Positions 1,643 through 61,715 of a stretch of 64,000 bases of DNA are shown here, in pieces. Source of the stretch: a virus; IMG/VR virus record IMGVR_UViG_3300014947_000001; one strand, written 5' to 3'. A program made the translations under genes and the position numbers. The notes below the pieces were generated by a model. That model saw nothing but the letters and a program-made list of their open reading frames with translations, was not told the origin of the DNA and did not search any database. Numbering within the stretch: the first letter of the stretch is position 1; each line of letters starts with the position of its first letter.

Positions 1643-2773
1643 ATGAATAAAGCGATCAAATACAGAATTTATCCGACAACTGAACAGAAGATCTTATTTG
1701 CTAAAACCTTTGGCTGTTGTCGGAAGGTCTATAACCTGATGCTTTCTGACAAGATCAGTTCCTACCAGGTATCAAAATCCTTTGGTAAGCAGACTCCTGC
1801 CATGTATAAGGACGAATTTCCTTATCTCAAGGAAGTGGACAGTCTTACGCTTGCCAATGCACAGATATACTTACAGACTGCAATGAAGAACCACTTTGAC
1901 AAGAAACGGAAGAAACGTACCGGATTTCCAAAATTCAAATCTGCAAAACGAAGCCGCAGGTCTTACACAACAAATAACCAGAACGGTACTGTTGCTCTTG
2001 TACAAAACGGGATCCGTCTTCCAAAGACTGGTATTGTAAAAGCGGTGATCCACAGATATCCGGAAGAAGATTGGATCATAAAATCTGCAACAGTCTCTCA
2101 GGACAGTGCGGGAAATTACTACGCTTCAGTACTCTTTGAGTTTGAAAAAGAGATCATTCCTGTCCCTGTCTCAGACAATGTGATCGGTCTGGACTATGCT
2201 TCAGACGGGTTATATAAAGACAACTATGGTAATACCGGTTCGGACCATAAGTTTTTCCGGGAAAGCCAGAAGAAATTAAGAAGAGAACAGAGACGTCTTT
2301 CCCGCATGACCGGGTCTAAAAAGGATGAACCAAAGTCAAACAACTATATGAAACAACAGATTAAGGTCAACAAGATCTACCGTCATGCAGCCAACCAGAG
2401 ACTCGACCATCTGCACAAATTATCTACCGGGATAGCCAACCGGTATGACATTGTCTGTGTGGAAGACCTGGACATGAAATCCATGTCAAATAAGAGTTTC
2501 GGAAACGGAAAAGCGACTATGGATAATGGTTACGGTATGTTTCTCAAAATGCTGGAGTACAAACTGAATGACAGAGGAAAGTATTTCATCAAGGTTGACA
2601 AGTGGTATCCAAGCAGCCAGATCTGCAGTCATTGCGGAAAGCGTCACCCGGAGATGAAGAACCTGCATAATCGTACCATGATCTGTGACTGTGGTTTCGA
2701 ATATGACCGTGACGTAAATGCAGCAATCAATATCAGGAATGAGGGTTTACGGATCTTAAAAGAAGCTGCGTAA
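1643..2773 (+). CDS. tnpB: TnpB (IS605 OrfB) RNA-guided endonuclease
   Basis: N-terminus MNKAIKYRIYPTTEQ; RuvC-I IGLDYASDG, RuvC-II VCVEDLD, zinc finger CSHCG...CDCG, RuvC-III DRDVNAAINI. Confidence 0.9.
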   Translation: MNKAIKYRIYPTTEQKILFAKTFGCCRKVYNLMLSDKISSYQVSKSFGKQTPAMYKDEFPYLKEVDSLTLANAQIYLQTAMKNHFDKKRKKRTGFPKFKSAKRSRRSYTTNNQNGTVALVQNGIRLPKTGIVKAVIHRYPEEDWIIKSATVSQDSAGNYYASVLFEFEKEIIPVPVSDNVIGLDYASDGLYKDNYGNTGSDHKFFRESQKKLRREQRRLSRMTGSKKDEPKSNNYMKQQIKVNKIYRHAANQRLDHLHKLSTGIANRYDIVCVEDLDMKSMSNKSFGNGKATMDNGYGMFLKMLEYKLNDRGKYFIKVDKWYPSSQICSHCGKRHPEMKNLHNRTMICDCGFEYDRDVNAAINIRNEGLRILKEAA

Positions 2774-10210: not shown

Positions 10211-10223
10211 GCACATATTTAAT
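10211..10223 (+). promoter_or_regulatory. Family-2 motif (GCACATATTTAA), putative promoter
   Basis: tttgtaac-N8-gcacatatttaat; ~35 nt upstream of the MCP start. Confidence 0.45.
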
Positions 10224-10259: not shown

Positions 10260-12062
10260 ATGAAATCATTGGCAAAGAAACTCAGTTTAATCTTTGTAGG
10301 CATCGTCTTAGTCACCTGTATCGTTCTTATCACGTTTGCAGGGTTAGCTTTTAATCGATTAGAGCGGACCTCAGAGGAAATTCTTTATGAGACAACATTG
10401 AATGGATATAAAACAGAGATCAAAAGTGAAGTCCAAGGAGCAGTATCCGTTGTTCGTGGGTTTTATGATTCCTACAGAAATGGAATCATAACAGAAGACA
10501 TCGCAAAGAGTGAAGCAAAAGAAGCGTTACGCAATATGCGGTACGGTGATGATAATTCCGGTTATTTTTGGATTGATGATACAAACTATAACCTCGTTAT
10601 GCATCCAATCCTTTCAGAACAGGAAGGAACGAACCGGAAAGATCTTGAGGACAAAAATGGAGTTAAGATCATTCAGGAAATCATGAAAGTTGCAGATAAT
10701 GGTGGATATAATGAGTTTTATTTCACAAAATCAGACGGCAAAACAGTAGCCCCAAAAGTAGCGTATTCTTTATCGTTTCCAGAATGGAACTGGGTGATCA
10801 CCACTGGCGTATATACAGATGACATTCAATCAATATTGTCTTCTTCCGCAGAGATAACGCGTACAAAAGCAATAAGCCGTAACAGTATCATATTTATGAT
10901 AGCGATTGGTGTTGTTCTTTATATATTAATGTTCTTCTTTTGTTTGTTTATCTGCAAAAAGCTCGTCTTGGTTATTAATCAGGTAAAGGAAAATTTAAAC
11001 AGTATCGCAGACGGTGACCTAACCGGACGGATTGACGGTAAGATCCTAAACAGAAAAGATGAACTCGGAAATATTGTAGTTCACACAAATAAAGCAGTCG
11101 AATCGTTCTGCAATAGCATTGCAACATCAAAACAGACTGCCATTACCGTGAACGAAAACAGTGCTGAAATATCCGGACTCGCAAACAGTGCTCTCGAAGC
11201 GACTGCTCAGGTTGCGGAAGCGATCAGTAATATAGCCGGAGATGCGACAACACAAGCAGGTGTCGTAAGTGATGTTGTGAAAAATATTGATACAATGAAC
11301 TGTAACGTCGAAGAAGTAAGTAATTCCGTTGACGACATCAGTCATTATGCGTGCGAATTAAATGAAGCCAGCGAAGACATGAAAGATAAAATGGATGCAA
11401 TGTCTAAAGGCAGCATGCAGATGTCAACACAGATTGAAAATATTTACAATCAGATTATGAAGACAACAGAGTCTATCAACAAAATGCAAGATGTATTAAA
11501 TGTTATCCAGGATATCGCTTCCCAGACAAACTTATTGAGTTTGAACGCAAGTATTGAAGCAGCAAGAGCCGGTGACAGCGGTCGTGGATTCTCTGTAGTA
11601 GCTTCTAATATTCGGGAATTATCAGAAAATACATCAAAAGAATTAAGTAATATTCGAGATATTATTGGAGAGCTCACTTCAAGTTTCGAAGAATGTAACG
11701 CTTCTATTGATACCGTCGTTGGTACAAATAAACAAAATGCTGAATACACAGGTCTGGTGATCAATTCATTTGATACTGTATTCGATGATATTAAGAATAC
11801 GAATGAAAATGTTTCTCATGTAACCACACTTACAAAACAGATTAGTGACATGATGAACCAGATCGCAGAGGGTATTGAAACCGTACAGCGAGGTGCTGAA
11901 AGTACAGCAGCTGCAACCGAAGAAGTTACGGCTTCCAGTGAAGAATTAAACGCTCTGATGCATAATATTACAGAAAACTGCAGGATCATGACAACCGAAG
12001 CCGAAAGTATGGTTGTGGATCTTAGTAAATTCAAGCTGGAAAAAGAAACAAAAACTGAATAA
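10260..12062 (+). CDS. methyl-accepting chemotaxis protein (Cache-like sensor, HAMP)
   Basis: Two transmembrane segments; Cache-like periplasmic domain; conserved signalling motif [32 protein letters not shown]. Confidence 0.9.
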
Positions 12063-23295: not shown

Positions 23296-24711
23296 ATGAA
23301 ATGGAAAACATTAATAGGTTTATTTCTTTTTGCGATAACATTGATAGTGATATCTTTTGATGATACCACTATTTTTGCTGACGATACAGTAAACCAACCT
23401 CTGTTTACCATTACAATTCCAAAACAGCTTACGATTGATGCTGACAAATGCGTAGAATACCAGGTTTGCGTACACAGGAATAGAACCAATGCTGGTACAG
23501 TAACCGTTATCCCGGATACGGAAGTAGTGTTATCAGACAGTAAAGGAAAAGCTGACGTTACCGGACAAGTGGCTCAAGATCAGACGCAATTTGAGTTTGC
23601 AGCAGACGGAGCCGATGAACAGGTAACAAATGGAACTGTCACCGCAAATGACTTAACGGCAGGAGACTGGACTGGCGCTTTCAATTTTAAAATCGATATG
23701 CAGGAAACGAAAATTGGTGACGATATAACATTAACCAGTGACAATCTTGCAGTTTATAACATATCAACATCCGGCGACGTCGTAATTCCTGAGTATGTAA
23801 CAGATACCGGCGGAGTCAAACATAAGGTTACTTCTATTAATGAATATACTTTTGGCGGCTGTTCTGAAGTAACATCCATAACGATTCCGAAAAGTGTGAC
23901 ATCCATAGGTAATTGTGTAGTTTCTGATTGCGATAAATTGGTTTCAATTATTGTGGATTCTGAAAATCCTGTATACGATAGCAGAAACAATAGCAACGCA
24001 ATCATTGAAACTGAGACAAACCGATTAATACAGGGATGTAACACTACGGTTATTCCAGAAACCGTTACAACAATTGGGCAGTATTCATTTAGTTATTGTA
24101 ATTTACTCGCTACCATTTCAATCCCAGATAGTGTGAAATCTATTGAGAAAAGGGCTTTTGATTCTTGCGAGAATTTAACCTCAATCACAATACCAGACGG
24201 TGTGACAAGTATTGACAGTGATGCATTTGCATGGTGTTCCAATTTAACATCAATTTGTATTCCGAATAGCGTTACCCATTTAGGTGGCTATTTGTTTTAT
24301 AATTGCACGTCACTGACATCAGTAACGCTTCCAGAAAATATAGAATCGATTCCTGGTGGAACATTTGATGGATGTCAAAGTTTAGCATCCATTACAATTC
24401 CGAATAGTGTAACATCGATTGGAAGTGATGCGTTTTACGGTTGTAAACAATTGACATCTATAGATATCCCAAATTCGGTTACAATATTAGGTTCCTTCTC
24501 TATTGCAAATTGTACCGGATTAACATCTACTTCTATTCCGGATAATATTACTTCTATTGGAGAACGAGCATTTGGAAGCTGCACGAATCTTTCATCAGTT
24601 ACTTATAAAGGAAATACGTATACAAACAAAACTAATATTGAAACGGTACTTGCGGAAAATAATGTTGCTCTCGAAAACGTAATATTCGACAATACAGCAT
24701 TATCTGAATAA
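23296..24711 (+). CDS. BspA-type leucine-rich-repeat surface protein
   Basis: Signal peptide; family N-terminal domain; ~12 LRRs of the form L(T/A)SI.IP.SVTSIG..AF..C; ends YKGNTYT. Confidence 0.75.
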   Translation: MKWKTLIGLFLFAITLIVISFDDTTIFADDTVNQPLFTITIPKQLTIDADKCVEYQVCVHRNRTNAGTVTVIPDTEVVLSDSKGKADVTGQVAQDQTQFEFAADGADEQVTNGTVTANDLTAGDWTGAFNFKIDMQETKIGDDITLTSDNLAVYNISTSGDVVIPEYVTDTGGVKHKVTSINEYTFGGCSEVTSITIPKSVTSIGNCVVSDCDKLVSIIVDSENPVYDSRNNSNAIIETETNRLIQGCNTTVIPETVTTIGQYSFSYCNLLATISIPDSVKSIEKRAFDSCENLTSITIPDGVTSIDSDAFAWCSNLTSICIPNSVTHLGGYLFYNCTSLTSVTLPENIESIPGGTFDGCQSLASITIPNSVTSIGSDAFYGCKQLTSIDIPNSVTILGSFSIANCTGLTSTSIPDNITSIGERAFGSCTNLSSVTYKGNTYTNKTNIETVLAENNVALENVIFDNTALSE

Positions 24712-24764
24712 TGTTTTCATCAATAAAGTGGATTCTTCTTTTCGTTTCCTCTGTCCATGTTCAG

Positions 24765-24777
24765 ACCATATTTATCT
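24765..24777 (+). promoter_or_regulatory. Family-2-like motif
   Basis: gaccatatttatc ~50 nt upstream of the 24829 start. Confidence 0.35.
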
Positions 24778-24828
24778 TGTTACTCGTGAACAATTTATAC
24801 TGAACACAAAGAAAGGAAACGAAATATT

Positions 24829-26406
24829 ATGAAACGAAAAGCAGTGAGTTGTCTGCTTGTTCTGGCTGCGATCATGACGATGACGCCTACGATTCCAACA
24901 ATGGCAGCCGAAAACCCGGACAACACAACACAGGAAGCAACAACGACAGGAACTCAAGGAGCTACTATTACATATCAACAGGATTCCGCTTTTACCGTCA
25001 CCATTCCGAAGACGATCACATTAGGACAGAATAAGAGTGCAACCTATGGCGTCAAAGTAAAAGGTGACATTTCTGGGAATGAAACGGTTACCGTTACTCC
25101 TGATGCCACCATGCAGTTGACGGATTCGAATGGAAAGGCTGCGGTTACTGGAACAATTACTCAGGATGTTACAGAGTTTGCAGCCACAGAAGTGAATCTT
25201 CCAGATGGCAATAGTACAACTGGTAACATTGAAGCAAACGAACTTACGTCGGGAGACTGGTCAGGAAATTTTGAGTTTGCGATCGGTGTCAATAAAGAGT
25301 TAATCGCTGGACTTTATGACGCAGATGGAAAGATGGTTTGTACTTGGGAAGAGAGTGGAATCGATATCGAACAAGATTACACAGACTCATCTGGGAACAA
25401 TCCTTACACAACAACAACATCATCTGCTTATTATGTAATTACGAATAATTTTCCAACAGCTACATCTGTTGTTATCCCAGACGGTATCACCCACATTGGA
25501 AGTGAAAATTTTGATGGTTGTAAAAATATATCATCTATTGCGATTCCAGACAGCGTAACAAGTATTGGTAAATATGCATTCCAAGAAACAGGTATTACCA
25601 ATGTTGATATACCTGATAGTGTAACATCTTTTGGTGATGGTGTGTTTTGTAATTGCTCTAATCTTACAAATATTTCAATTCCAGAAGGTGTAACAAGTAT
25701 TGGATTTGGTGTATTTAAAGATTGCACTGGATTAACCTTAATTACAATACCAGACAGTGTAACAAGTATTGGAATTAGCACATTTAATAATTGTAACTCC
25801 TTAACATCCATTACGATACCAGATAGTGTAACAAGTATTGGAAATGCAGCTTTTTTTGGATGTGAAAAACTTGCAAATATCACAATCCCAGACAGTGTAA
25901 CAAGCATTGGACATCAAGCATTTAATGGTTGCAAAGGCTTAACATCCATTACAATACCAGATGTTGTAACAAGTATCGGGAGAGGCACATTTTGGGGATG
26001 TTCTAGCTTAAACTCAATCACAATACCAGACAGTGTGACAAGTATTAATAGTAATGCATTTAATGGTTGCAAAGGCTTAACATCCATTACAATACCAAAC
26101 GGTGTAACGAATATTGAAGGTGCCGCATTTAAAGGATGTTCAGCATTACCATCAATCACAATACCAGATGGCGTAACAAGCATTGGATATAGTGCATTTG
26201 AGGGTTGTAAAGGTTTAATATCTATTACAATACCAAACGGTGTAACGAATATTGGATATTATGCATTTAATAGTTGTTCAAACCTTGCATCTGTAACCTA
26301 TAAAGGACAGACCTACACAAGCATATCAGCACTAACAACAGCACTGAAAAATGATAAAGTAAAAATGGAATGGGATGTATTTAAAGGCACAGCCTTAACC
26401 AATTAA
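24829..26406 (+). CDS. BspA-type leucine-rich-repeat surface protein
   Basis: Signal peptide; N-terminal domain [17 protein letters not shown]; ~14 LRR units [11 protein letters not shown]; ends YKGQTYTS. Confidence 0.8.
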
Positions 26407-32816: not shown

Positions 32817-32972
32817 ATGGATGAACACAGAGAGGAAATCATTCATGAGGAACCATGCCGGGAGATGTTATGGTTTCAGGAGCTGGCACAACAAGACCAG
32901 AACGGATATACAGTAAACAAAACGAAAGTGAGAAAGATATTAGAGTACATATTACGGAGGATGAAAAATGAA
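32817..32972 (+). CDS. small protein (51 aa) translationally coupled to the sigma factor
   Basis: RBS gaaaggagggattgcATG; its stop overlaps the sigma start (ATGAATAG); absent from ORF track. Confidence 0.35.
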
Positions 32973-34929
32973 TAGCTACACCGAAGCAGTACAAAAAGCA
33001 ATGAAAGGAGACCAGGAAGCGTATACGTACCTGTATGAGAAAACGTATACGAAATGTTTTTACCTGGCGAGGAAGTTTTTAAACAGCGAGCACACAGCAC
33101 AGGATATCGTTCAGGATGCCTATGTGAAGGCTTTTAAGTCTCTGGATACCTTAGAAGACCCGGAGAAGTTTCAGTCATGGATCGGAACGATTGTGTCGAA
33201 CCTTGCCAAAAACGAACTGAAACGAAGAAAGGTAACCTTGTTCTCTGAAACAGAAAACGAAGACGGACAGGATATCAGTGATACCTTTGTGGATGACCGT
33301 GTGTCTGTTCAGCCGGAAGTCGTTATGGATCAGAATGAGACAACGAGACTGATGAAAGAGATCATTGATACTTTGACAGATGAACAGCGCATCTGTGTCA
33401 CAATGTTCTATATGGAACAGATGTCTGTAAAAGAAATGGCGTCCGTGCTTGAAGTATCAGAGAACACCGTTAAGAGCCGCCTGAATTATGGCAGACAAAA
33501 GATCAAAGACAAAGTATTAGACCTCGAAAAGAAAGGTACCAAGCTTTATGGTCTTGCTCCGATTCCATTCTTCCTGTTGCTGCTTAAAGAGGACGTCAAA
33601 GCGGCACAGGCAACACAGATTCCGTCAATGTCGGCTGCAGTGTCTTCAGCAACCAAAGCAGTTGCAACCGCAGCAGGAACCGGAAGTACCGTTGCCGGAA
33701 CAACCGCAGCCACAGTAGCAGCAGGCGCCGGAAAGGGAATCGCAACAAAGGTGATCGCAGGCATTGTCGCCGGAACGCTTGTTATCGGAGGTGGAGCAGC
33801 AGCGATTGTGCATATGCAGGGGCAGAGCGGAAATCATTATAAACTTGCAAAATCAATTTCAGATTTACCTGACTGGGCGTATGATAGTACAAATGGATTA
33901 AAATATATAAGCATTCAAGATTATAAATATCCAATTAGTTTAATTTTAGATTATGATAAGGATATGGTGGAGCGTGGCGAGGTTAAGTATTATTCCAATC
34001 CAGGTCATACAGGATATGAAGGAATGAAATGTGATCCAAAAGTTTGGTATTTTGGAGAATATAATGGACGTATCTATTATGTGGATAGAGCTAATACAGA
34101 GAATCTACGTTATCATTTATACCGTGTGCCAAAAGCTTCTGATTATGATTTATATTTAGAAGATTCAGATACTTATATGGCTTCTATATTTAATGATCTT
34201 AATGCAAGAAGTTCAGATAGTTTTTTATTTACATATGATGAAGATGAACATAATCAATATGTTGCGATTGAGGATATGATCAATTCTGACGGCTATAGTT
34301 TTGATGAATGGTACTGCATTACAGAAGATGACCTTATTCCGGATGCTGTAGATGCATACAATGATTGGGTTGCAAATGGGGAGGCAGAGATGAATGCCAT
34401 ATATGCATCCCATATCACTGTAACAGAATCAGTCCCGGAAACAGAAACAGAAACCGAAGAAGTAGTGGAAGAAGTAACTGAGGAACCGACAGAAACGGCT
34501 CCGGAAGAAACAGAAGTACAGGAAGCAGAAGGGGAGACCGTTGATCAGAGCGGAAATATTCCGGTTCCGAACTATACGCCAACTGGCAATTTCTGGAATA
34601 CACCTGGTTCTTACTCAAGCAATGATGGACAGACATTATCATTAAGCATGTTTACGGAAGACGGTGGAGTAGAAGGATGGTGCGGAAACATAAATGGCGG
34701 ATCAGTAGGTTCTCTGGAAGTCTTCAATTATGGTGATAAGATCTATTATCTGAAGAAAGCAGACAGTTCCTATTCGAATTTCACAGACAGCGGATATGCA
34801 TTTACTTTGGAACCGTCCGGAGAAACACTTGACATTTATGGGGAAACCTATGATATAATACTTTTGAAGTTGTACTATAATGGTGTACTTCAAGGAGAGT
34901 ACTATGAAACAGACCTCTATCAATCATAA
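32968..34929 (+). CDS. ECF-type sigma-70 family protein fused to a transmembrane segment and large C-terminal extracytoplasmic domain
   Basis: Region 2 (DIVQDAYVKAF..FQSWIGTIVSNL); region 4 (EQRICVTMFYMEQMSVKEMASVLEVSENTVKSRL); Ala/Gly/Thr-rich transmembrane segment ~aa 215-265; ~380-aa C-terminal domain. Confidence 0.75.
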   Translation: MNSYTEAVQKAMKGDQEAYTYLYEKTYTKCFYLARKFLNSEHTAQDIVQDAYVKAFKSLDTLEDPEKFQSWIGTIVSNLAKNELKRRKVTLFSETENEDGQDISDTFVDDRVSVQPEVVMDQNETTRLMKEIIDTLTDEQRICVTMFYMEQMSVKEMASVLEVSENTVKSRLNYGRQKIKDKVLDLEKKGTKLYGLAPIPFFLLLLKEDVKAAQATQIPSMSAAVSSATKAVATAAGTGSTVAGTTAATVAAGAGKGIATKVIAGIVAGTLVIGGGAAAIVHMQGQSGNHYKLAKSISDLPDWAYDSTNGLKYISIQDYKYPISLILDYDKDMVERGEVKYYSNPGHTGYEGMKCDPKVWYFGEYNGRIYYVDRANTENLRYHLYRVPKASDYDLYLEDSDTYMASIFNDLNARSSDSFLFTYDEDEHNQYVAIEDMINSDGYSFDEWYCITEDDLIPDAVDAYNDWVANGEAEMNAIYASHITVTESVPETETETEEVVEEVTEEPTETAPEETEVQEAEGETVDQSGNIPVPNYTPTGNFWNTPGSYSSNDGQTLSLSMFTEDGGVEGWCGNINGGSVGSLEVFNYGDKIYYLKKADSSYSNFTDSGYAFTLEPSGETLDIYGETYDIILLKLYYNGVLQGEYYETDLYQS

Positions 34930-38286: not shown

Positions 38287-39141
38287 TTACATTAGAAAAC
38301 AATTTGTTCCATGACCGGCTTTCAGATCAGATGAACCAACCTTTACAGCATTTGCCATTAAGTTTACGTCATTTGCATGTCCGTCACGAATCGCCGCTTC
38401 AATCAGATCTGAAGCTCCGTGCGCAATTACCAGGACACGAAGTGCATGCAGCTGATCACGCATCATTTCGAGATCGACGTCTCTGTCAACATCATGCTGT
38501 CTTAAGTGTTCGTTGTACTTATCTTCGATCTCAAACAGTTTTGTCATCCGATCGATGTCGTCCAGTGCCTCTTTGTACTTGCTGCGGCATAACCGGTTGA
38601 TTTCTGCAGACCGTTTTAATTCCCGCATCTTCTCGTTCTTTTTTCGAAGCTTGGTCCTCAGACGGTCAACTTCTTCTGCAAGGTCACCGATCTGTCTGTT
38701 GAGCTGACGTCTTTCTTTCTCTTCCAGATGTTCCTGACCCATGATGTAACCACCATGTTTACGAACGGATGGTAATACCTCATGCGTTACCCAATGCTGG
38801 AAATCGGACGCAGATTTTGCTTCGGAATGCATTAACAGATCATAAAAACCGCACTCATTGATGATCCATTTATCGGAATAATCGTTTGGGTTTTGCCATA
38901 AAATGGCTTTGTCCGCTGTGGACAAAGCCTTATATTTCAAGGCTTTGCGGTCTTCTTTTCGAACAAATCTCGTGATTGCATGTCCTTTGGCACTTGAATT
39001 ATCATACCCAAGTTTGTCTGCAACTTCTCGCCCAATAAACCAAATTGTTCCTTCTTCATCCTGTAATAAATGAAGAGATCCGAATACATCATTTAAAAAT
39101 TCAGATGCATCAAATTTACTACTGCTACTGCTGTTATCCAT
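38287..39141 (-). CDS. BRO-N domain antirepressor-like protein
   Basis: RBS aaaggagcttacatATG; BRO-N motifs WFIGREVADKLGY..AI; coiled-coil C-terminus. Confidence 0.7.
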   Translation of the reverse strand: MDNSSSSSKFDASEFLNDVFGSLHLLQDEEGTIWFIGREVADKLGYDNSSAKGHAITRFVRKEDRKALKYKALSTADKAILWQNPNDYSDKWIINECGFYDLLMHSEAKSASDFQHWVTHEVLPSVRKHGGYIMGQEHLEEKERRQLNRQIGDLAEEVDRLRTKLRKKNEKMRELKRSAEINRLCRSKYKEALDDIDRMTKLFEIEDKYNEHLRQHDVDRDVDLEMMRDQLHALRVLVIAHGASDLIEAAIRDGHANDVNLMANAVKVGSSDLKAGHGTNCFLM

Positions 39142-39182
39142 ATGTAAGCTCCTTTCATACATATATGATTAGTGGTTTCGTA

Positions 39183-39194
39183 CTAAATATGTGC
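39183..39194 (-). promoter_or_regulatory. Family-2 motif (minus strand)
   Basis: Plus-strand ctaaatatgtgc = gcacatatttag on the minus strand, upstream of the BRO gene. Confidence 0.4.
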
Positions 39195-39261
39195 TCTTTG
39201 TTATCGAGACAAATGAACATTTTTCAATACTATTCGTTGCGGATTTCTTTGTTTCATCCTC

Positions 39262-39276
39262 GTCCATATTTAATCT
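39262..39276 (+). promoter_or_regulatory. Family-2 motif
   Basis: cgtccatatttaatc ~35 nt upstream of the 39312 start. Confidence 0.4.
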
Positions 39277-39311
39277 GAGGTACTATGGGTATTTCAGAAA
39301 GGATATTAAAA

Positions 39312-40841
39312 ATGAAACCAGTAACTGATTACGAAAAGATAAAAGACTTACTATTTAATAGTGATAAAAACTTATTTATTACAGGACCCGGAGGAACCGG
39401 AAAGACTTATCTTATAAATTCATATCTTGCAACAGCAACCAATGCTATCGTATGCGGAACGACCGGTATGGCAGCGGCAAACATTGGTGGGGATACGATG
39501 CATCGGATCTTTGCAATTCCAGTACCAGCATGCGGAGCCGACTTAAAGAAGATTGATCAATCCCGTATCAAGCCATTGATCAAAGCGGATGTTGTGATCA
39601 TTGATGAGATCTCAATGTGCAGAAACGATACCTTTTCTTTCATGTATAAAGTACTCAAAAAAGCTGAGCGTCTAAAAGGCAAGCGAATCCGTCTTATTGT
39701 CGTCGGAGATTTTTCACAATTACCTCCAGTCGTCACAACTTCGGACGCCAAATTATTGAAAAAGTTCGGATTCGATACATCCGGATTCGCATTTACAACC
39801 AAAGAATGGGGAACCTGTAAATTTACAGTATGTGAGTTGACGGAAGTCCGTAGACAAAGTGACGTCGAATTTATTAAGGAATTACACAGAGCCAGACTTG
39901 CAGATAAAAAGTGTATTCCCTATTTCAATGGGTTTCTGACCGATATACCGCCTGATGATGTGATTCGATTATGCGGAACCAATGCTGAAGTGGAAAAGAT
40001 CAACCGGATGTATTTAGACAGTCTGCCAGGACTGCCGGTCCCCTATCAGTGTACAAAAGAAGGGAGAATAACCGGTAATTACATCGACGAGATCATTTTG
40101 CTCAAAGAAGGCGCCCGGGTAGTGTTCCTTGCAAATGATATCAAATGTCAGTACAGGAACGGACAAATGGGCACGGTACTCTCTTGCTATCCTGACCATG
40201 TTCTTGTACAAGTGGATGGGAAAGAAATTAATGTATACCAACATGAATTTATCCATTATGAATACAAAGTGAAAAGCAATACTCTGCTTCGTGATGAAGT
40301 CGGCGTCGTAAAACAGATCCCTCTTCGTCTGGCTGCTGCAATTACAATCCATAAATCTCAGGGAAAAACATTCGACGCTATGGTACTTTCGCCTAAGATA
40401 TTCGCTGCCGGTCAGTTATATGTAGCACTCTCTCGGGTTACCGGACCAGATGGACTTTATCTGACAGAGCCGGTTGTTGAAGATTATCTGATGTCTGACA
40501 AAACGGTTCTTAAGTTCTACAAAAATGGATATACCTGGACATACACAAAGAAAAAGACAGCAGATAGTAGGAATAAAGCGAGTTCTAAGTCTACTACTGC
40601 TACTAAGAAAACAACAGCAAAAACAGCTGGTTCCAAAACTTCGAAAACGGTAACTTCGAAAACGAAAACTGCCGGAACCAAAACTTCAAAAACTACTGTG
40701 AAAAAGACGAAAACGGTAACAACGAAACAGAATGGAGTAAAAACAGCCGGAACCAAAACTTCCGGTTCCAATAAAATGCAGACAACAAAGAAAACCAACG
40801 CAAAAGGAACCAAAAAGACGGGTTCTAAAACAACCACATAG
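39312..40841 (+). CDS. PIF1/RecD-like SF1 helicase with Lys/Thr-rich C-terminal tail
   Basis: Walker A ITGPGGTGKT, motif II VVIIDEISM, QLPPV; ~90-aa K/T/S/A low-complexity tail. Confidence 0.8.
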   Translation: MKPVTDYEKIKDLLFNSDKNLFITGPGGTGKTYLINSYLATATNAIVCGTTGMAAANIGGDTMHRIFAIPVPACGADLKKIDQSRIKPLIKADVVIIDEISMCRNDTFSFMYKVLKKAERLKGKRIRLIVVGDFSQLPPVVTTSDAKLLKKFGFDTSGFAFTTKEWGTCKFTVCELTEVRRQSDVEFIKELHRARLADKKCIPYFNGFLTDIPPDDVIRLCGTNAEVEKINRMYLDSLPGLPVPYQCTKEGRITGNYIDEIILLKEGARVVFLANDIKCQYRNGQMGTVLSCYPDHVLVQVDGKEINVYQHEFIHYEYKVKSNTLLRDEVGVVKQIPLRLAAAITIHKSQGKTFDAMVLSPKIFAAGQLYVALSRVTGPDGLYLTEPVVEDYLMSDKTVLKFYKNGYTWTYTKKKTADSRNKASSKSTTATKKTTAKTAGSKTSKTVTSKTKTAGTKTSKTTVKKTKTVTTKQNGVKTAGTKTSGSNKMQTTKKTNAKGTKKTGSKTTT

Positions 40842-40864
40842 GCACAAAATAAGGAGACTATTAT

Positions 40865-41917
40865 TTAGTCTCCTTTGTTTTCTTCTGATTTGTTGGTATC
40901 TTCGTATTTGATGCCTCGGATCAGCTGTTTTCGTTCTTCTGACATCGTTGTGTAAAAATCTTTCGTCGTCTGAATGTTTTTGTGACCTAATGCGGTGGCA
41001 GTCAAATACAAATCTCCTGTTTGATTATAAAGTTTTGTTCCGAAAGTACGTCTTAAGGTATGAGGAGTTACATGCTCTCCAATGGTATCTCCATACGCTT
41101 TGATCATTCGTTCTACGGACCGTACTGATAACCGATCGCCAGTTGCATGTCTTGATGATAAAAATAATGCCCGGTTTGCGTCATCGTAAGGTTGTCTTTC
41201 AAAATCAATATAACGATCGATAGCTTTTCGAACCACATCATTTATAAGTACGTCCTCCTCTTTTCCTCCCTTTCTTGTTACGTGGATTGTCATTGTATTC
41301 CGATTAATGTCATCAATATTTAGATTACATAATTCAGAAACACGGATTCCAGTATACGCAAGTGTTGTTATGATTGCAATATTTCTATACTTTGTATTTT
41401 CAAGATAAAACAAAGATTCTGGTTTTCCAACACAAGCCTTCACATTATTCAACAATTCTACTGTTTCGTCACTTGTTAGTGGTCGTTTCTTTTCCAATTC
41501 CGCTTTTGGTCTATCTATTAATTTTGCAACATTCATAGAAAGTCCTTTGAATGTAACCAGATATTGGAAAAAAGCTCGCATACAGCTTAGCTTTTGTGCT
41601 CTTGCTTTTGCTTCATTATGTACTGTTTCATACTCAGTCATATGCAAACGTAAATAACTCATATATTTTTGCATATCAAGAGCATTGATTTGATTTAACA
41701 TATCTATTGTGATATCGCTATATTCAGAAATCAAAGAATTTCGGTCAATCAAAAATTGAAAGAAATTACGAATATTATATGCATATGAAATCATCGTATT
41801 GTAAGATCTGCCCAATGTTCCGTCACAATAATCAAAATAGTCTTTTACGTAGTCTGGAAGATCTACTTTTAACCTATTCAATTGTTGCAGTTTTTTGTAT
41901 TTTACATCTTCTTTCAT
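40865..41917 (-). CDS. int: tyrosine site-specific recombinase / integrase
   Basis: Catalytic motifs R..(ELCNL), HTLRRTF, LGHKNIQTTKDFY; start re-assigned to MKEDVKYKK. Confidence 0.9.
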   Translation of the reverse strand: MKEDVKYKKLQQLNRLKVDLPDYVKDYFDYCDGTLGRSYNTMISYAYNIRNFFQFLIDRNSLISEYSDITIDMLNQINALDMQKYMSYLRLHMTEYETVHNEAKARAQKLSCMRAFFQYLVTFKGLSMNVAKLIDRPKAELEKKRPLTSDETVELLNNVKACVGKPESLFYLENTKYRNIAIITTLAYTGIRVSELCNLNIDDINRNTMTIHVTRKGGKEEDVLINDVVRKAIDRYIDFERQPYDDANRALFLSSRHATGDRLSVRSVERMIKAYGDTIGEHVTPHTLRRTFGTKLYNQTGDLYLTATALGHKNIQTTKDFYTTMSEERKQLIRGIKYEDTNKSEENKGD

Positions 41918-41956
41918 AATGAATATTATAGAACGAATACGAAAAAATGGCAACAA

Positions 41957-41989
41957 ATCTGACGAGTTTTCCATACTTTGAGCCTTATC
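41957..41989 (+). promoter_or_regulatory. Family-1 motif
   Basis: atctgacgagttttccatactttgagccttatc; overlaps the integrase 5' region on the opposite strand. Confidence 0.45.
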
Positions 41990-42031
41990 ATATGTAAACA
42001 AATAATTCGAAAACAAAAGGAGATTTTTACA

Positions 42032-42313
42032 ATGAGAACAATCAAGGAAGATACGGTTAAAGAAGCAATCGATTTCTATGGTGCGAACATTCAGGCAACA
42101 ATCTGTATGGAAGAATGCGCAGAGCTTATCCAATGCATCAGCAAAGAGATTCGAGGCAAATCAAACATTGATCATCTTGCTGAGAAAATGGCAGATGTAT
42201 GTATCTGTATTGAGGCTTTAAAACAGATTTATGGTATTTCAGATGAGCAGATGCAGTTCTGGATTGATTTCAAACAGAAACGTATCGAGGATCGTATGTT
42301 GAAAGGAGAATAA
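42032..42313 (+). CDS. MazG-like nucleotide pyrophosphohydrolase
   Basis: RBS aaaggagatttttacaATG; EECAELIQ...EKMADV, typical of all-alpha NTP-PPases. Confidence 0.5.
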   Translation: MRTIKEDTVKEAIDFYGANIQATICMEECAELIQCISKEIRGKSNIDHLAEKMADVCICIEALKQIYGISDEQMQFWIDFKQKRIEDRMLKGE

Positions 42314-53546: not shown

Positions 53547-54227
53547 TTAAAATCGACCTAATCTGACCGATACATCACAAATACTATCTTCGAGCTTTTC
53601 TTTAATTCGCTTTGCGCATTCCTCTTTGTCTGTATCAGATATTTTTGTTGGATCAGGATATTCTTTGTTTAATTCCCTGCAAACGTACTCTGCTTTTTGT
53701 CCGAGTTTGTATCCTTTTTCTTTGTATCGTTTGTAATCAGGAGCAATATCAATTGAATTTGAATCAAATACGGTCCAGGTATTATAACCTTTGATTAACA
53801 AAGCAACACAGAAAACAAATACAAGAATGATCGTCACGTTGATGTTAATGAACAACATCGGCGATAAAAACAGGGTGATTATTGGAATTAAGATCCAGGA
53901 AGTAATGATTCTGAATTTTTCCTGTTTATTCAAATATTGTAATAAATCCTCTGTCATTCTTGTACAACAATGTTCGAATCGATTTTTGTCTTGATCACAA
54001 TAAATGAAAATATTATACTGCTTGAAATCGTTAGGGACTGAAACAAATCTTTTAGCTACCAGTTTCGGCAAGAAATATTCGATTGCGATCGCTGCTACAA
54101 TAATCATAACGGGACCGACACATAATCCGAGTAACTTTAAGATCAATCTAAGGGTCTCGAAATACCCCATGCCGTCTGCGTGTTGCAACTGGTTAATAAT
54201 TTTTACAAGTTCGTCTGTTTGAAACAT
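53547..54227 (-). CDS. MFxTEEL-family membrane protein, paralog 1 of 4
   Basis: N-terminus MFQTDELVKIINQLQHA; three to four transmembrane segments. Confidence 0.6.
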   Translation of the reverse strand: MFQTDELVKIINQLQHADGMGYFETLRLILKLLGLCVGPVMIIVAAIAIEYFLPKLVAKRFVSVPNDFKQYNIFIYCDQDKNRFEHCCTRMTEDLLQYLNKQEKFRIITSWILIPIITLFLSPMLFININVTIILVFVFCVALLIKGYNTWTVFDSNSIDIAPDYKRYKEKGYKLGQKAEYVCRELNKEYPDPTKISDTDKEECAKRIKEKLEDSICDVSVRLGRF

Positions 54228-54267
54228 AATACTTTTCTCCTTTTCTTTTGATGGTTTATTTGTTACG

Positions 54268-54280
54268 TCTTAAATATGTG
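54268..54280 (-). promoter_or_regulatory. Family-2 motif (minus strand)
   Basis: Plus-strand cttaaatatgtgc = gcacatatttaag on the minus strand, ~40 nt upstream of the 54227 start. Confidence 0.4.
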
Positions 54281-54458
54281 CCCGATATTAATGGAGAAAC
54301 CGGTGTTCTATATGATAAGTTGGGCACAAAAATACCGGATGCTAACACACTCATACGGAAACAAAATATCAGGGAACAAAAAGTATTGCTAAACTGATTA
54401 ATCGATTTACTTTCTTTTTGTTCCCATAAATATTCGTTTCCGATAATTCTATCGTTTA

Positions 54459-55157
54459 TCAGTGATCACATAGATGAATCACACAGATGACAGCTTTGCA
54501 ATACCGATCATTTACGGCTGCATTTATAATTTGTTCTATCTCATATTTATCCATATGCTTCAATTTCTTTGTATCTATAGTTTTAAATGCTTCCTGGATT
54601 TTCTCACAAAACTGATTTCTGATTTCTGTTTTGTTTACAGAGTTTTCCTTTGCTATATCGCTCCAATCATAGCAACCAAAACTGTCGTTACAGAAAAACA
54701 ATGTAAGTACAAGTCCTACGATTATACAAAATGTAAATATACCAAAAAGAACTTTTGTATGGTCATTAAAAAGAAATGGACTTAATAACAATAATACAAT
54801 TACAGAGAAGCCACAGGTTATTTTATAACGCAAGAATCCCCGTTTACAAAGTAGTTTTTCATAATCACGACTTTCTTCCCAATCAGACGGCTTCAAAAAA
54901 TCTTTGTCTTTCTTTCGTTTAAGAACGAAGTGATAATCGTATAACTTCATTGTGTCTGACACTGGCGTTAATTTGTATGAAATCCATTTTGGTCCCAATA
55001 CTAAAATCACTATTAAACTGATAACAAACAGTGTGGGACCTGCACATAGTCCAATTAATTTAAAAATCAGCAGTAGTGTATCGAAATACCCGAGTCCGCT
55101 TCCTTGTGCATGCTGCAATTGATCAATTATTTGTTGTAATTCTTCTGTATGAAACAT
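54459..55157 (-). CDS. MFxTEEL-family membrane protein, paralog 2
   Basis: MFHTEELQQIIDQLQHA; transmembrane segments. Confidence 0.6.
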   Translation of the reverse strand: MFHTEELQQIIDQLQHAQGSGLGYFDTLLLIFKLIGLCAGPTLFVISLIVILVLGPKWISYKLTPVSDTMKLYDYHFVLKRKKDKDFLKPSDWEESRDYEKLLCKRGFLRYKITCGFSVIVLLLLSPFLFNDHTKVLFGIFTFCIIVGLVLTLFFCNDSFGCYDWSDIAKENSVNKTEIRNQFCEKIQEAFKTIDTKKLKHMDKYEIEQIINAAVNDRYCKAVICVIHLCDH

Positions 55158-55196
55158 ATATAATCTCCTTTCGTTTCCTCTGACTTAACTATTCAT

Positions 55197-55230
55197 AATA
55201 AGGCTCAAAATACCGAAAACTCGTCAGGAA
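55197..55230 (-). promoter_or_regulatory. Family-1 motif (minus strand)
   Basis: Plus-strand aataaggctcaaaataccgaaaactcgtcaggaa. Confidence 0.5.
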
Positions 55231-55320
55231 ACAAAATATCAGGGAACAAAAAGTTGGTAAATTAATTAATTAATTGGTTTACTTTCTTTTTGTTCCCATG
55301 AATATCCGTTTCCGAAACAG

Positions 55321-56016
55321 TCACTCTCTGCTAATAAGGATCTTATAATAAGGATCGTTTACCCTTATGCCTAAAATTCGAGCGATTTCCTTTTTACTCA
55401 TATCTTTCAACTGATTTGCATCAATCTCTTCAAAAGCTTTTATCACTTTTTCAGCAAACTGATCTTTTGTCTCTGATAATTTATCTTCCTTTGCGATATC
55501 TTCCCAGCCCTTGAGTTCTGATTCATAATCATAAACTACATATACATATAGAAGAACACTACCCATAACGATCATAAATGCATAAGCAGGAAACCTCATT
55601 ATTTCACTAAAAAAGAAAGGACTTATCAGTAGTGATACAATTACTGAAAAAACGCATGTTATCTTATAACGCAGGAAACCTCGTTTACAAAGTAACTTTA
55701 GGTAATCGCTGGTATATTTAATTGTGTTGAACTGTAGAGGTGAATCTCTCTGCAAACGATATTTCCCATTTTTACACTTAAGAATAAAATAGCAATTATA
55801 CCGTTTCATGTTATCCGGAGTTGGTGTTAATTTGTATGAAATCCATTTTGGAATCCATATTAAAATTAATATCAAACAAATAACAAACAGGATTGGTTTT
55901 GCACATAATGCAATCAGTTTCAGGATTAAAAGCAGTGTGTCAAAATAACCGATTCCGTCTACTTGTGCATGTTGTAACTGATCAATGATTTTTTGCAATT
56001 CTTCGGTGTGAAACAT
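55321..56016 (-). CDS. MFxTEEL-family membrane protein, paralog 3
   Basis: MFHTEELQKIIDQLQHA. Confidence 0.6.
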   Translation of the reverse strand: MFHTEELQKIIDQLQHAQVDGIGYFDTLLLILKLIALCAKPILFVICLILILIWIPKWISYKLTPTPDNMKRYNCYFILKCKNGKYRLQRDSPLQFNTIKYTSDYLKLLCKRGFLRYKITCVFSVIVSLLISPFFFSEIMRFPAYAFMIVMGSVLLYVYVVYDYESELKGWEDIAKEDKLSETKDQFAEKVIKAFEEIDANQLKDMSKKEIARILGIRVNDPYYKILISRE

Positions 56017-56055
56017 AGATAATCTCCTTTCATTTCCTCTGATTTAACTATTCAT

Positions 56056-56089
56056 AATAAGGCTCAAAATACTGAAAACTCGTCAGGAA
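56056..56089 (-). promoter_or_regulatory. Family-1 motif (minus strand)
   Basis: Plus-strand aataaggctcaaaatactgaaaactcgtcaggaa. Confidence 0.5.
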
Positions 56090-56190
56090 ACAATAAATTA
56101 GGGAGCAAAAAGTCGGTAAACTAATTAATTGGTTTACTCAACTCTTGCTCCCTAAACATCTGTTTCCGAAATAATCAGTAACTGAATTCG

Positions 56191-56919
56191 TTAGATTTCA
56201 GGAAACGGAAAACGAATAGAACAACAGTCAGATACTATATGCTCATCCATATATTTTTCAAACTCAATTGGTGTCATTTCTACTTTATCCTTTTTCAGTG
56301 AGAATACCTCTTTGTACAGTTGTTCTTTGATATTGGATTCAATCTCATTGATACTTGATAGTTTTTGAATATTTCCATATATTGCCCAATGGTTTTCGTG
56401 GCAGAGTGATCGAAAATTAATATCATCAATTTCAGTTGTTAGGTAATAACCATCTTTAGTCTTATTTCCTACAATCCAATATAAAAAGATACAGACAACT
56501 GTAATGTAGGTTAACATAGTACCGAAGCTTACGAATAAAAATGGACTTAACAAAAAACACGCAATTAAGGATAAAACGGTTGTTATCTGATATCTTAGAT
56601 GTCCGCGTTTTTCAAGGATTGCTTTATATTTCTTCGTAAACCTTATTCCTTCAAAATGAAGATCATTTAGATTTTTATATCCCCAGCTGCACAAAAAATA
56701 ATATGGCTTCATGTCTTTTTCTAGCGGTATCAGAATTTGCGGTAAATATTTTGGAACAAAATACAATACTGCAAAGACTGCAAACACAAATAAAATCGGT
56801 CCCGCACACAGTCCGATTAATTTCGTAATCAACAGCAAGGTATCAAAATAACCAAGACTGGCTCCATGAGAACTCTGTAATTGATCAATGACTTGTTTTA
56901 ATTCTTCTGTATGAAACAT
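56191..56919 (-). CDS. MFxTEEL-family membrane protein, paralog 4
   Basis: MFHTEELKQVIDQLQSS. Confidence 0.6.
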   Translation of the reverse strand: MFHTEELKQVIDQLQSSHGASLGYFDTLLLITKLIGLCAGPILFVFAVFAVLYFVPKYLPQILIPLEKDMKPYYFLCSWGYKNLNDLHFEGIRFTKKYKAILEKRGHLRYQITTVLSLIACFLLSPFLFVSFGTMLTYITVVCIFLYWIVGNKTKDGYYLTTEIDDINFRSLCHENHWAIYGNIQKLSSINEIESNIKEQLYKEVFSLKKDKVEMTPIEFEKYMDEHIVSDCCSIRFPFPEI

Positions 56920-61082: not shown

Positions 61083-61297
61083 TCCAAAGATTCAAAACAA
61101 AAGTACAAAACATCAGAACTCACTTCCCCAGAGTTCAAATCTACGTTTTAAAGTACAAAACGAAGATTATACTCTTGGAATACAGAGTTCAAATCTTCTA
61201 CCTAAAGGCAGAAGATAACCCTTACCCGAGTAAACGAGTAAGGGTTGTAAACTTCACAGTATAAAACTTTATTACAGAGACTGGTTTTCGAGTTCTA

Positions 61298-61562
61298 GGT
61301 ATACGCTACCTGGAAATAGCCAGGGTCTATAACTCCTAATTCACGCCATGAGCTGCTGCTTGTGGTATACGCTACCTGGAAATAACCAGGGTCTATAACA
61401 TACATCTTTATTCGAAAACATGAGAAATAGGTATACGCAACACGGAAACAACCAGGGTCTATAACTAATGTTTTCAATATCCTGGGATATGCACAACCCG
61501 GGAATAACCAGGATCTATAACATTCTTTATAACGGAAGTGGTGTGCGCTATTTGGAAATAAC
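61298..61562 (+). CRISPR. orphan CRISPR-like mini-array (two intact 36-bp repeats, two 30-nt spacers, then three degenerate repeats)
   Basis: R1 ggtatacgctacctggaaatagccagggtctataac (61298-61333); R2 at 61364-61399 (1 mismatch); spacers 61334-61363 and 61400-61429; R3-R5 progressively degenerate with ~18-nt spacers; internal hairpin CCTGG-aaatag-CCAGG. Confidence 0.5.
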
Positions 61563-61584
61563 CTTTCTTTCTTTTGTTGTTATC

Positions 61585-61596
61585 TTAAATATGGGT
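61585..61596 (-). promoter_or_regulatory. Family-2 motif (minus strand) facing the array
   Basis: Plus-strand cttaaatatggg = cccatatttaag on the minus strand. Confidence 0.35.
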
Positions 61597-61715
61597 GAGT
61601 AATTTACAAAGGAATACAATTTGATGATAAGGAGAAGGATGAGGCTAAGGGAAGTTTGCATCATCACAAAACAAATAAAAGATCCCACGCAAAAACAAGC
61701 AGGATCTCTATATTC

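Follow-up and report, generated by a model that had tools for sequence, protein, structure and literature searches.

A short CRISPR array on a large human-gut element is best explained as a type II-C-like CRISPR–tracrRNA cassette serving a Cas9 of the same element

Introduction

[quoted passage not shown] The question is raised by a 64,000-nucleotide (nt) stretch of the viral record IMGVR_UViG_3300014947_000001 (hereafter the window), in which a 36-nt unit recurs five times at 61298–61575. The initial annotation of this DNA described the repeats as an orphan mini-array that borrows the Cas machinery of its host and directs it against competitors. Here we argue that the array is one of several dispersed cassettes on a large mobile element, running on the minus strand from about 61617 down to 61187, and that it is a type II-C-like unit of array and trans-activating CRISPR RNA (tracrRNA) which serves a Cas9 encoded by the same element. 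We put the probability of this reading at roughly 0.85.

Results

The same repeat adjoins Cas9 in related loci

The repeat units start at 61298, 61364, 61430, 61486 and 61540 and are 100, 97, 86, 78 and 61% identical to the first copy, respectively. In plus-strand order, the spacers between them measure 30, 30, 20 and 18 nt, giving a spacing of 66 nt in the intact part. The repeat consensus does not occur again in the window, and a search allowing up to three mismatches found two matches versus none in 100 shuffled sequences, confirming that the repetition is far beyond chance. Tandem Repeats Finder did not report the array, because its spacers are unique. Regular direct repeats separated by unique spacers of similar length are nevertheless what a CRISPR array consists of, and the same layout was found in 69 arrays. 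The fifth copy proved to be a truncated repeat and not just a degenerate one, as it is repeat-like only in its first 24 nt (61540–61563). Open reading frames (ORFs) of 51–60 amino acids (aa) within the array were dismissed as repeat artefacts.

As the initial annotation had stated, the 64-kb window has no cas genes except tnpB at 1643–2773; it also has no tRNA and no Rfam match. Large window ORFs were rejected as hidden effectors, the 862-aa ORF matching only a RING_SCO0854-like family and an uncharacterised PHROG. We describe the repeat across related loci (given below as L numbers), which were gathered through look-ups of a ClpX-like neighbour protein, pattern scans of IMG/VR and metagenome contigs, and further protein look-ups. 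Through the ClpX-like protein, this locus was recovered from many human-gut metagenome contigs, and the repeat family on human-gut contigs comprises 69 arrays of 2–12 repeats each, with 72 different spacers of 29–31 nt.

In nine loci, the window itself not among them, Cas9 adjoins arrays of the same repeat, which supplies the cognate cas locus that the window lacks. An ORF of 1166 aa stands beside arrays in L025, L030, L040 and L050, a 1211-aa version is present in L056, and partial copies were found in L037, L045, L046 and L052. The 1166-aa ORF starts MENGFTYRLGLDIGIASVG, matches TIGR01865 over its full length (E 2.5e-223, 744 bits), and has RuvC and HNH motifs visible in its sequence. Its nearest solved structures are Cas9 chains, several of them 1082–1095 aa long, which we take to be the type II-C enzymes GeoCas9 and NmeCas9. 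A chromosomal relative, whose Cas9 is 51% identical, has the gene order cas9-cas1-cas2-array with the tracrRNA upstream of cas9, and its 36-nt repeat GTTGTAATTCCCTGTTATCACTTGGTATGGTATAAT is 58% identical to that of the element, differing at 15/36 positions.

Large ORFs flanking the arrays always lie on the strand opposite to the plus-strand reading adopted initially. Since cas9, the flanking genes and the promoter all oppose that orientation, the functional repeat is therefore GTTATAGACCCTGGTTATTTCCAGGTAGCGTATACC, on the window minus strand, and the strand first read is antisense. G.U pairs in the tracrRNA hairpins and the 3' protospacer flank, both described below, support the minus strand as well. 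The CCTGG/CCAGG palindrome, noted initially as a hairpin, is not the functional part of the repeat. Copies 1 and 2 have it, but the family does not conserve it, mostly carrying CCCGG/CCAGG and in some cases CCAAG. A scan of GTDB species representatives with ACCTGGN{4,8}CCAGGGTCTAWAAC returned 7 single matches, two of them inside a coding region in Bacillota metagenome-assembled genomes and the rest in unrelated phyla, and these were rejected; the pattern was too narrow, as most arrays of the family read ACCCGG. A megablast of window 56–64 kb against INPHARED found nothing.

Read on the minus strand, the cassette consists of the following features, in the order of transcription proposed here:

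61585..61617, minus strand: predicted cassette promoter, reading GTATTCCTTTGTAAATTACTCACCCATATTTAA; the consensus promoter of the element, identical with the Family-2 motif
61540..61563, minus strand: truncated, promoter-proximal first repeat, with the 3' 24 nt of the repeat kept: GGTTATTTCCAAATAGCGCACACC
61522..61539, minus strand: 18-nt spacer remnant ACTTCCGTTATAAAGAAT, identical in all window-type contigs and with no match elsewhere
61486..61521, minus strand: degenerate repeat GTTATAGATCCTGGTTATTCCCGGGTTGTGCATATC, with 5 differences to the family consensus and 8/36 to the window's first copy
61466..61485, minus strand: 20-nt spacer remnant CCAGGATATTGAAAACATTA, with one single-nucleotide polymorphism (SNP) among contigs
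61430..61465, minus strand: repeat GTTATAGACCCTGGTTGTTTCCGTGTTGCGTATACC, with the 5' 16 nt that pair with the anti-repeat intact
61400..61429, minus strand: spacer S2, TATTTCTCATGTTTTCGAATAAAGATGTAT; older, also present in the more distant relatives L016, L017 and L095
61364..61399, minus strand: intact repeat GTTATAGACCCTGGTTATTTCCAGGTAGCGTATACC
61334..61363, minus strand: spacer S1, ACAAGCAGCAGCTCATGGCGTGAATTAGGA; youngest spacer of this copy, adjoining the tracrRNA side
61298..61333, minus strand: last repeat GTTATAGACCCTGGCTATTTCCAGGTAGCGTATACC, on the side where new spacers appear, followed by a 9-nt linker to the tracrRNA
61187..61288, minus strand: predicted tracrRNA gene, with putative expression and approximate ends, made up of anti-repeat, hairpin 1, terminal hairpin and tail
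61271–61286, minus strand: anti-repeat AACCAGTCTCTGTAAT
61217–61246, minus strand: tracrRNA hairpin 1, of 12 bp
61193–61216, minus strand: terminal hairpin, then the tail TTTGAAC
61129..61167, minus strand: second, duplicated terminator-type hairpin with TTTGAAC, within a 39-nt insertion/deletion polymorphism

A predicted tracrRNA follows the last repeat

Throughout the family, a conserved segment of ~100 nt follows the last repeat after a linker of 9–12 nt. Its order is anti-repeat, in some cases an inserted hairpin, then a 12-bp hairpin, a terminal hairpin and the tail TTTGAAC. The anti-repeat occurs once in the window, and each array in 57 loci has one beside it. The consensus fold pairs it with the 5' 16 nt of the repeat through 8 bp and 6 bp around a 2x2 internal loop. 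Across 15 distinct variants, 97.4% of cells are paired in this structure versus 32–48% when the partners are slid. The inner stem of the terminal hairpin is entirely different between cassettes with its pairing kept, including four pairs changed on both sides in 5–6 sequences, and hairpin 1 has one compensatory C-G to U-A change. G.U pairs occupy 85/718 cells and become mismatches if the segment is read on the other strand. For the unit of the window itself, the folding energy is -49.5 kcal/mol (z = -5.08). Rfam gave no relevant match for the tracrRNA region at gathering and E-value thresholds. On these modelled structures, all features open to in-silico testing identify the segment as a tracrRNA; tracrRNA genes beside arrays have already been described (PMC3737331). 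The window and L011 carry the 39-nt insertion, and L008–L010 and L012 lack it; the hairpin it contains (61129–61167) resembles alternative terminal hairpins of other cassettes.

At the other end of the cassette, the Family-2 motif reported to face the array is real (TTATCTTAAATATGGG at 61580–61595). The motif, (T)TTCTTTGTAA-N~12-CATATTTAA, has ~30 copies in the window on both strands, most of them 25–60 nt upstream of a Shine-Dalgarno sequence and ATG (e.g. 10214(+), 17438(+), 18803(+), 26934(+), 43007(+), 62967(-), 54278(-) and 45149(-)), and its core matches 17 times in the window as compared with 3.7 expected. Almost all arrays of the family are preceded by this motif, and in other cassettes (L017, L095) the same truncated first repeat comes directly after it. 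Its position and conservation point to a predicted promoter of the element. Because the linker to the tracrRNA is short and only a single promoter is recognisable, array and tracrRNA appear to form one transcription unit. A sigma-70 consensus scan did not call the cassette promoter, and scans of the region for promoters and terminators were uninformative; the element encodes a sigma-factor fusion protein (32968–34929) that might read the motif.

In the II-C systems of Neisseria and Campylobacter, CRISPR RNAs (crRNAs) are transcribed from an extended -10 box at the 3' end of each repeat. The repeat of the chromosomal relative ends TGGTATAAT, an extended -10 box, and inspection of the element's repeat, which ends GCGTATACC (TATACC), found no such box. 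This end should not serve as a -10 box, and the external element promoter appears to replace it.

Spacers turn over at the tracrRNA end

The arrays of closely related contigs can be compared spacer by spacer. In six contigs found through the ClpX-like neighbour, the array is identical save two SNPs. Between S1 and S2, L027 and L044 each carry an additional spacer, not the same one in both; L055 is missing either S1 or S2; and L103 extends the window's array by two spacers beyond S1, on the tracrRNA side, and by one internal spacer. Extra spacers stand beside S1 in L027, L044 and L039, and polarised variation is also seen in the series L040, L046, L050 and L052. In these comparisons, promoter-proximal spacers are common to related arrays and tracrRNA-proximal spacers vary; therefore, the decayed repeats and short spacers mark the old end of the array, which is also where transcription would start. 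By this comparison of sequences, the oldest units lie at the degenerate end, and spacers are gained at the tracrRNA end. The initial annotation had taken the degenerate end for the trailer of the array, which is right in that it is the oldest, non-acquiring end and wrong in that it is transcription-proximal, next to the promoter. Such reversed polarity, the opposite of most CRISPR types, has been reported for type II-C systems of Neisseria and Campylobacter. The chromosomal II-C relative has the same polarity, with a degenerate repeat (degenerate in its 5' part) upstream in transcription and variable spacers at the other end.

The state of the array itself allows another explanation, namely that the array was once active and survives in this copy as a decaying, non-functional remnant. 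Three of its five repeats are degenerate or truncated, two spacers have shrunk to 20 and 18 nt, no target is known for either 30-nt spacer, and the array is invariant in many contigs. However, the promoter, the anti-repeat-pairing segments of the three tracrRNA-proximal repeats and the complete tracrRNA are intact, arrays of this type normally have a degenerate repeat next to the promoter, and the close relatives L103, L027, L044 and L039 have gained spacers at the tracrRNA end and internally. We consider a dead remnant unlikely, at about one chance in ten, and prefer the reading as a working cassette.

Several further observations concern the arrays of the family. Spacers of L049 and L052 (GCATTTATGACAAAAGCGAATTTAGCCCGG and AAGGCATTTATGACAAAAGCGAATCTGGCA) overlap one protospacer with a 3-nt offset and few differences, as if variants of a single target had been sampled independently. 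A solitary repeat, GTTATAGACC[C/A]TGGTCATTTCCGGGTAGCGTATACT, lies 700–900 nt from the array with no spacer partner in L041 ((-) 2232), L049 ((-) 9856) and L095 (2600). A 917-aa ORF, with no NCBIfam match, lies between two cassettes in several relatives (L016/L017 3188–7063, L031, L049, L051 and L061). The finding of one array beside different neighbours (L020 versus L031) suggests that arrays mark points of recombination.

Family spacers match phages and plasmids

The idea that the spacers are directed against competitors is borne out for the family, in which 5/72 spacers match foreign elements at 28–31 nt, and not for the window's own two 30-nt spacers. For the latter, searches of the window, the fetched loci, INPHARED and PLSDB gave no protospacer, and in IMG/VR the first 22 nt of S1 and S2 match only the arrays themselves. 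Three of the family matches lie in unrelated human-faecal phage contigs (31/31, 30/30 and 28/30 nt). A spacer of the L024 array matches 30/30 nt in a gene of the replication module on a Lachnospira eligens ATCC 27750 plasmid (NC_012782.1 56606–56635, L113); the gene is ZapE/DnaC-like and lies beside a DnaB-like helicase, and the match hints at the host genus. An L024 array spacer also matches 30/30 nt in repA of Campylobacter pTet plasmids (NC_006135.1 4954–4983, L114), an odd cross-phylum match. No spacer matches the element itself in 0.9 Mb of fetched sequence. With its layout, the polarised spacer turnover and the foreign protospacers of its family, the locus is a genuine CRISPR array on a mobile element, as first proposed.

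In Cas9 orientation, the 3' flanks of the five protospacers read catctttc, cgtataac, tctgctac, tttacaac and aggacaac. They share N4-Y-W-A-C, with C at +8 in 5/5 and A at +7 in 4/5, and do so only in the minus-strand orientation. From these five protospacers, N4-Y-W-A-C is a candidate long protospacer adjacent motif (PAM) of the II-C kind.

The carrier is a large element that encodes Cas9

Many near-identical variants of the Cas9 were found on gut contigs of up to 409,491 bp. In two independent assemblies of 409,469 and 409,491 bp it lies at different coordinates, and their different start points suggest a complete circular or terminally redundant genome of ~409 kb. The window's exact SPFH protein, encoded 2.5 kb from the array and indexed in 761 blocks of the assembly collection, is present on contigs of 400,144, 406,635, 288,759, 239,434 and 216,108 bp. 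The last of these, a JGI contig, carries both this exact protein and Cas9 (P0018), ~110 kb apart. Window 55.8–60.8 kb is 95.4% identical to this 216-kb contig, 98.4% to the 239-kb contig and 96% to the 400,144- and 406,635-bp contigs; in the latter two, a tracrRNA end lies at the same site, upstream of a homologue of the 144-aa gene. Several contigs have cas9 with its own cassette and further cassettes elsewhere. In the ~400-kb genomes, the cas9-adjacent cassette is tiny, with 1–2 spacers or a single repeat (L068/L070 9608–9709, L072 9611, L094 9578–9745), and most spacers are in satellite cassettes.

By this collinearity, the array is not an orphan, its Cas9 being encoded elsewhere on the same ~400-kb element; the earlier description holds only inside the 64-kb window. 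Nor would interference need host Cas machinery, as had been supposed, with Cas9 on the element and a tracrRNA in the cassette itself. IMG/VR lists the relatives as viral, and among the PHROG matches are a head maturation protease, Ant, dUTPase and a sigma factor. Neither a capsid nor a terminase was recognised, and a megaplasmid is possible; the carrier is probably a huge phage of ~400–409 kb in human-gut Bacillota.

A cassette of this kind could instead serve a Cas9 of the host, either arming it against competitors or acting as a decoy or re-director in the manner of viral single-guide RNAs. The last repeat, linker and anti-repeat do fold like a single-guide RNA, phage-encoded Cas9 inhibitors resembling single-guide RNAs have been reported in preprints, gut bacteria have chromosomal II-C systems with the 58%-identical repeat, and the lack of Cas1 and Cas2 in the fetched sequence makes some host dependence likely. 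Against this, repeat, promoter and tracrRNA are the same in the cassette adjoining the element's own cas9, and all 41/41 loci with this repeat are element-like, with no chromosomal cas9-cas1-cas2 locus among them. The spacers are full length (30 nt), diverse, PAM-flanked and directed at foreign phages and plasmids and not at a cas9 promoter, and even the nearest chromosomal repeat departs at the 15 positions given above. Service to a host Cas9 is in our view a little less probable than a decayed remnant, and we retain the element's own Cas9 as the partner of the cassette.

The contigs differ in other modules. A Bro-N / PIF1 helicase / tyrosine integrase module (window 38287–42133) has identical proteins on many contigs, including L084 and L086; two module contigs from different samples are both exactly 15,513 bp, as might be expected if the large element harboured a small integrative or circular one. 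An IS605-family TnpB lies at window 1643–2773, at L009 19612–21149 (with a Y1 TnpA), and in L012, L074 and L102, on otherwise collinear contigs of ~94% nt identity; because its positions differ in these, it seems to move within the element. Four tandem paralogues encoding membrane proteins of 226–242 aa, starting MFxTxEL..IIxQLQ, lie at window 53547–56919 (-) and vary in copy number among contigs. Window 10260–12062 and 23296–26406 encode a Cache-domain methyl-accepting chemotaxis protein and, in addition, two BspA-type leucine-rich-repeat proteins, on an element that seems phage-like; the chemotaxis protein has the element's promoter motif upstream at 10214(+).

The plus-strand likeness to Cas13d repeats

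The weakest alternative, a type VI-D (Cas13d) array on the plus strand, can be set aside with near certainty, the adjacent effector being Cas9. Its appeal is that a 36-nt repeat with 30-nt spacers fits, that a stem with a bulge can be drawn, and that the plus-strand 3' end GGGTCTATAAC resembles the 11-nt end of the EsCas13d repeat, GGGGTCTAAAAC, 21/36 positions of which match by our own count (EsCas13d sequence confirmed in PMC8869480). Yet tblastn with CasRx (query verified against PDB 9m31) matches only the control loci L021, L023 and L035 and 0/41 loci with this repeat. The opposite strand is the one to which promoter, tracrRNA, G.U pairs and PAM point, and the likeness is that of the reverse complement of any type II repeat starting GTTWTAGAC. 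The same Cas13d-like pattern caught the repeat of L036 (GTTTTAG...), which we read as type II-A-style. As by-catch of the scan, L021, L023 and L035 are genuine Cas13d loci (L023 with the EsCas13d repeat) and served as positive controls; L038 and L059 have related repeats and no Cas13d in the short stretch fetched.

Discussion

Taken together, our data favour a type II-C-like cassette that serves the Cas9 of its own element. In the mechanism we propose, the element promoter would start transcription ~12 nt before the truncated first repeat, and the transcript would run through two decayed units, two intact spacer-repeat units and the 9-nt linker into the tracrRNA, ending at one or two hairpins. 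The anti-repeat could pair with the first 16 nt of each repeat in trans or, in the case of the last repeat, in cis, resembling a single-guide RNA. Host RNase III and the element's Cas9, presumably also present in this strain, would then produce guides and cut DNA in which a protospacer is followed on the 3' side by N4-Y-W-A-C, the putative targets being competing phages and plasmids in the same host. New spacers would enter at the repeat beside the tracrRNA, leaving the promoter-proximal end oldest and decayed.

Several points weigh against this reading. A search for Cas1 and Cas2 within 10 kb of cas9, and throughout the 918 kb of sequence retrieved, found neither, and csn2 and cas4 are likewise absent; to account for spacer turnover, either the cas1 and cas2 genes lie elsewhere in the ~409 kb or a host integrase is used. 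The promoter halves are too closely spaced for a standard sigma-70 consensus, the window's own two spacers are without a known target, and the PAM is drawn from five protospacers only. The weakest link is that to cas9, which depends on 95–98% collinearity and one shared exact protein: no contig was found with both the window-type cassette (with its ClpX-like neighbour) and cas9, look-ups of P0060, P0067 and P0069 matched no window-type record, and an IMG/VR scan with Cas9 found nothing, including on a 115-kb window-type contig.

A more far-reaching version is that a II-C system has been reorganised into several free-standing promoter-array-tracrRNA units over ~400 kb, that the newest spacer works as a natural single-guide RNA without trans pairing, and that spacers are added via host Cas1-Cas2. 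We offer this tentatively, as somewhat improbable. Three of the features involved, namely multiple promoter-array-tracrRNA cassettes, loss of the repeat promoter and single-guide-RNA-like fusion of the acquiring repeat, were not found described in the available parts of the literature compared.

If the reading holds, an apparent orphan becomes part of a complete system, with strand, type and polarity corrected. It would represent a widespread human-gut element with its own Cas9, a predicted tracrRNA, a candidate PAM and guide cassettes against rivals, of possible use in host assignment (one spacer being directed at a Lachnospira eligens plasmid), in the study of conflict among gut mobile elements, and as a ready set of Cas9, tracrRNA and repeat. 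It also carries a caution, in that reading a type II repeat on the wrong strand can make it resemble a Cas13 repeat.

How does the cassette compare with known systems? It has the marks of type II, a Cas9 signature gene found with the repeat and, in silico, a tracrRNA with anti-repeat and hairpins. Within type II, it resembles the II-C systems of Neisseria meningitidis, Campylobacter jejuni, CcCas9 and GeoCas9 in its Cas9 of ~1100 aa, whose best solved relatives include chains of GeoCas9/NmeCas9 length, and it shares the 36-nt repeat and 30-nt spacers of Clostridium cellulolyticum CcCas9. Also as in II-C, the anti-repeat pairs around a bulge, csn2 and cas4 are missing, the candidate PAM is a long 3' motif with informative bases at +5 to +8, and the degenerate repeat lies at the transcription-upstream end with acquisition at the other. 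Unlike in II-C, cas1-cas2 do not stand beside cas9, the tracrRNA follows the array on the same strand instead of lying upstream of cas9, there are several cassettes per genome, and the repeat is without the extended -10 box reported for Nme and Cc repeats. With Cas13d arrays it shares the repeat and spacer lengths and a similar 11-nt plus-strand end, but these are on the wrong strand, and Cas9 and a tracrRNA take the place of Cas13d.

Orphan mini-arrays and RNA anti-CRISPRs, such as solitary repeat units and viral single-guide RNAs, are likewise short arrays on mobile elements, and the repeat/anti-repeat junction here resembles a single-guide RNA. RNA anti-CRISPRs mimic a repeat or single-guide RNA to inhibit a Cas effector of the host, are often found beside acr or aca genes, and either have no guide or have one directed at the cas promoter. 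An orphan mini-array has no cognate effector on its element, however, whereas Cas9 was found on contigs of this one; the spacers are, unlike those of RNA anti-CRISPRs, full length, diverse and PAM-flanked, and no guide against a cas9 promoter was seen. Finally, one study describes huge phages (genomes of more than 200 kb) with Cas9-based type II systems, most of them without Cas1, Cas2 and Cas4, with compact arrays and spacers against other phages (Al-Shayeb et al. 2020, PMC7162821). This element may be one of those phages, the only virion-gene match found being the head-maturation-protease PHROG, and a layout of array plus tracrRNA in one cassette was not found described in the passages compared. 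The features in common are a large element listed as viral by IMG/VR, a Cas9-based type II system without Cas1, Cas2 or Cas4, spacers against phages, and arrays of 2–12 repeats, as compared with a median of six in that study.

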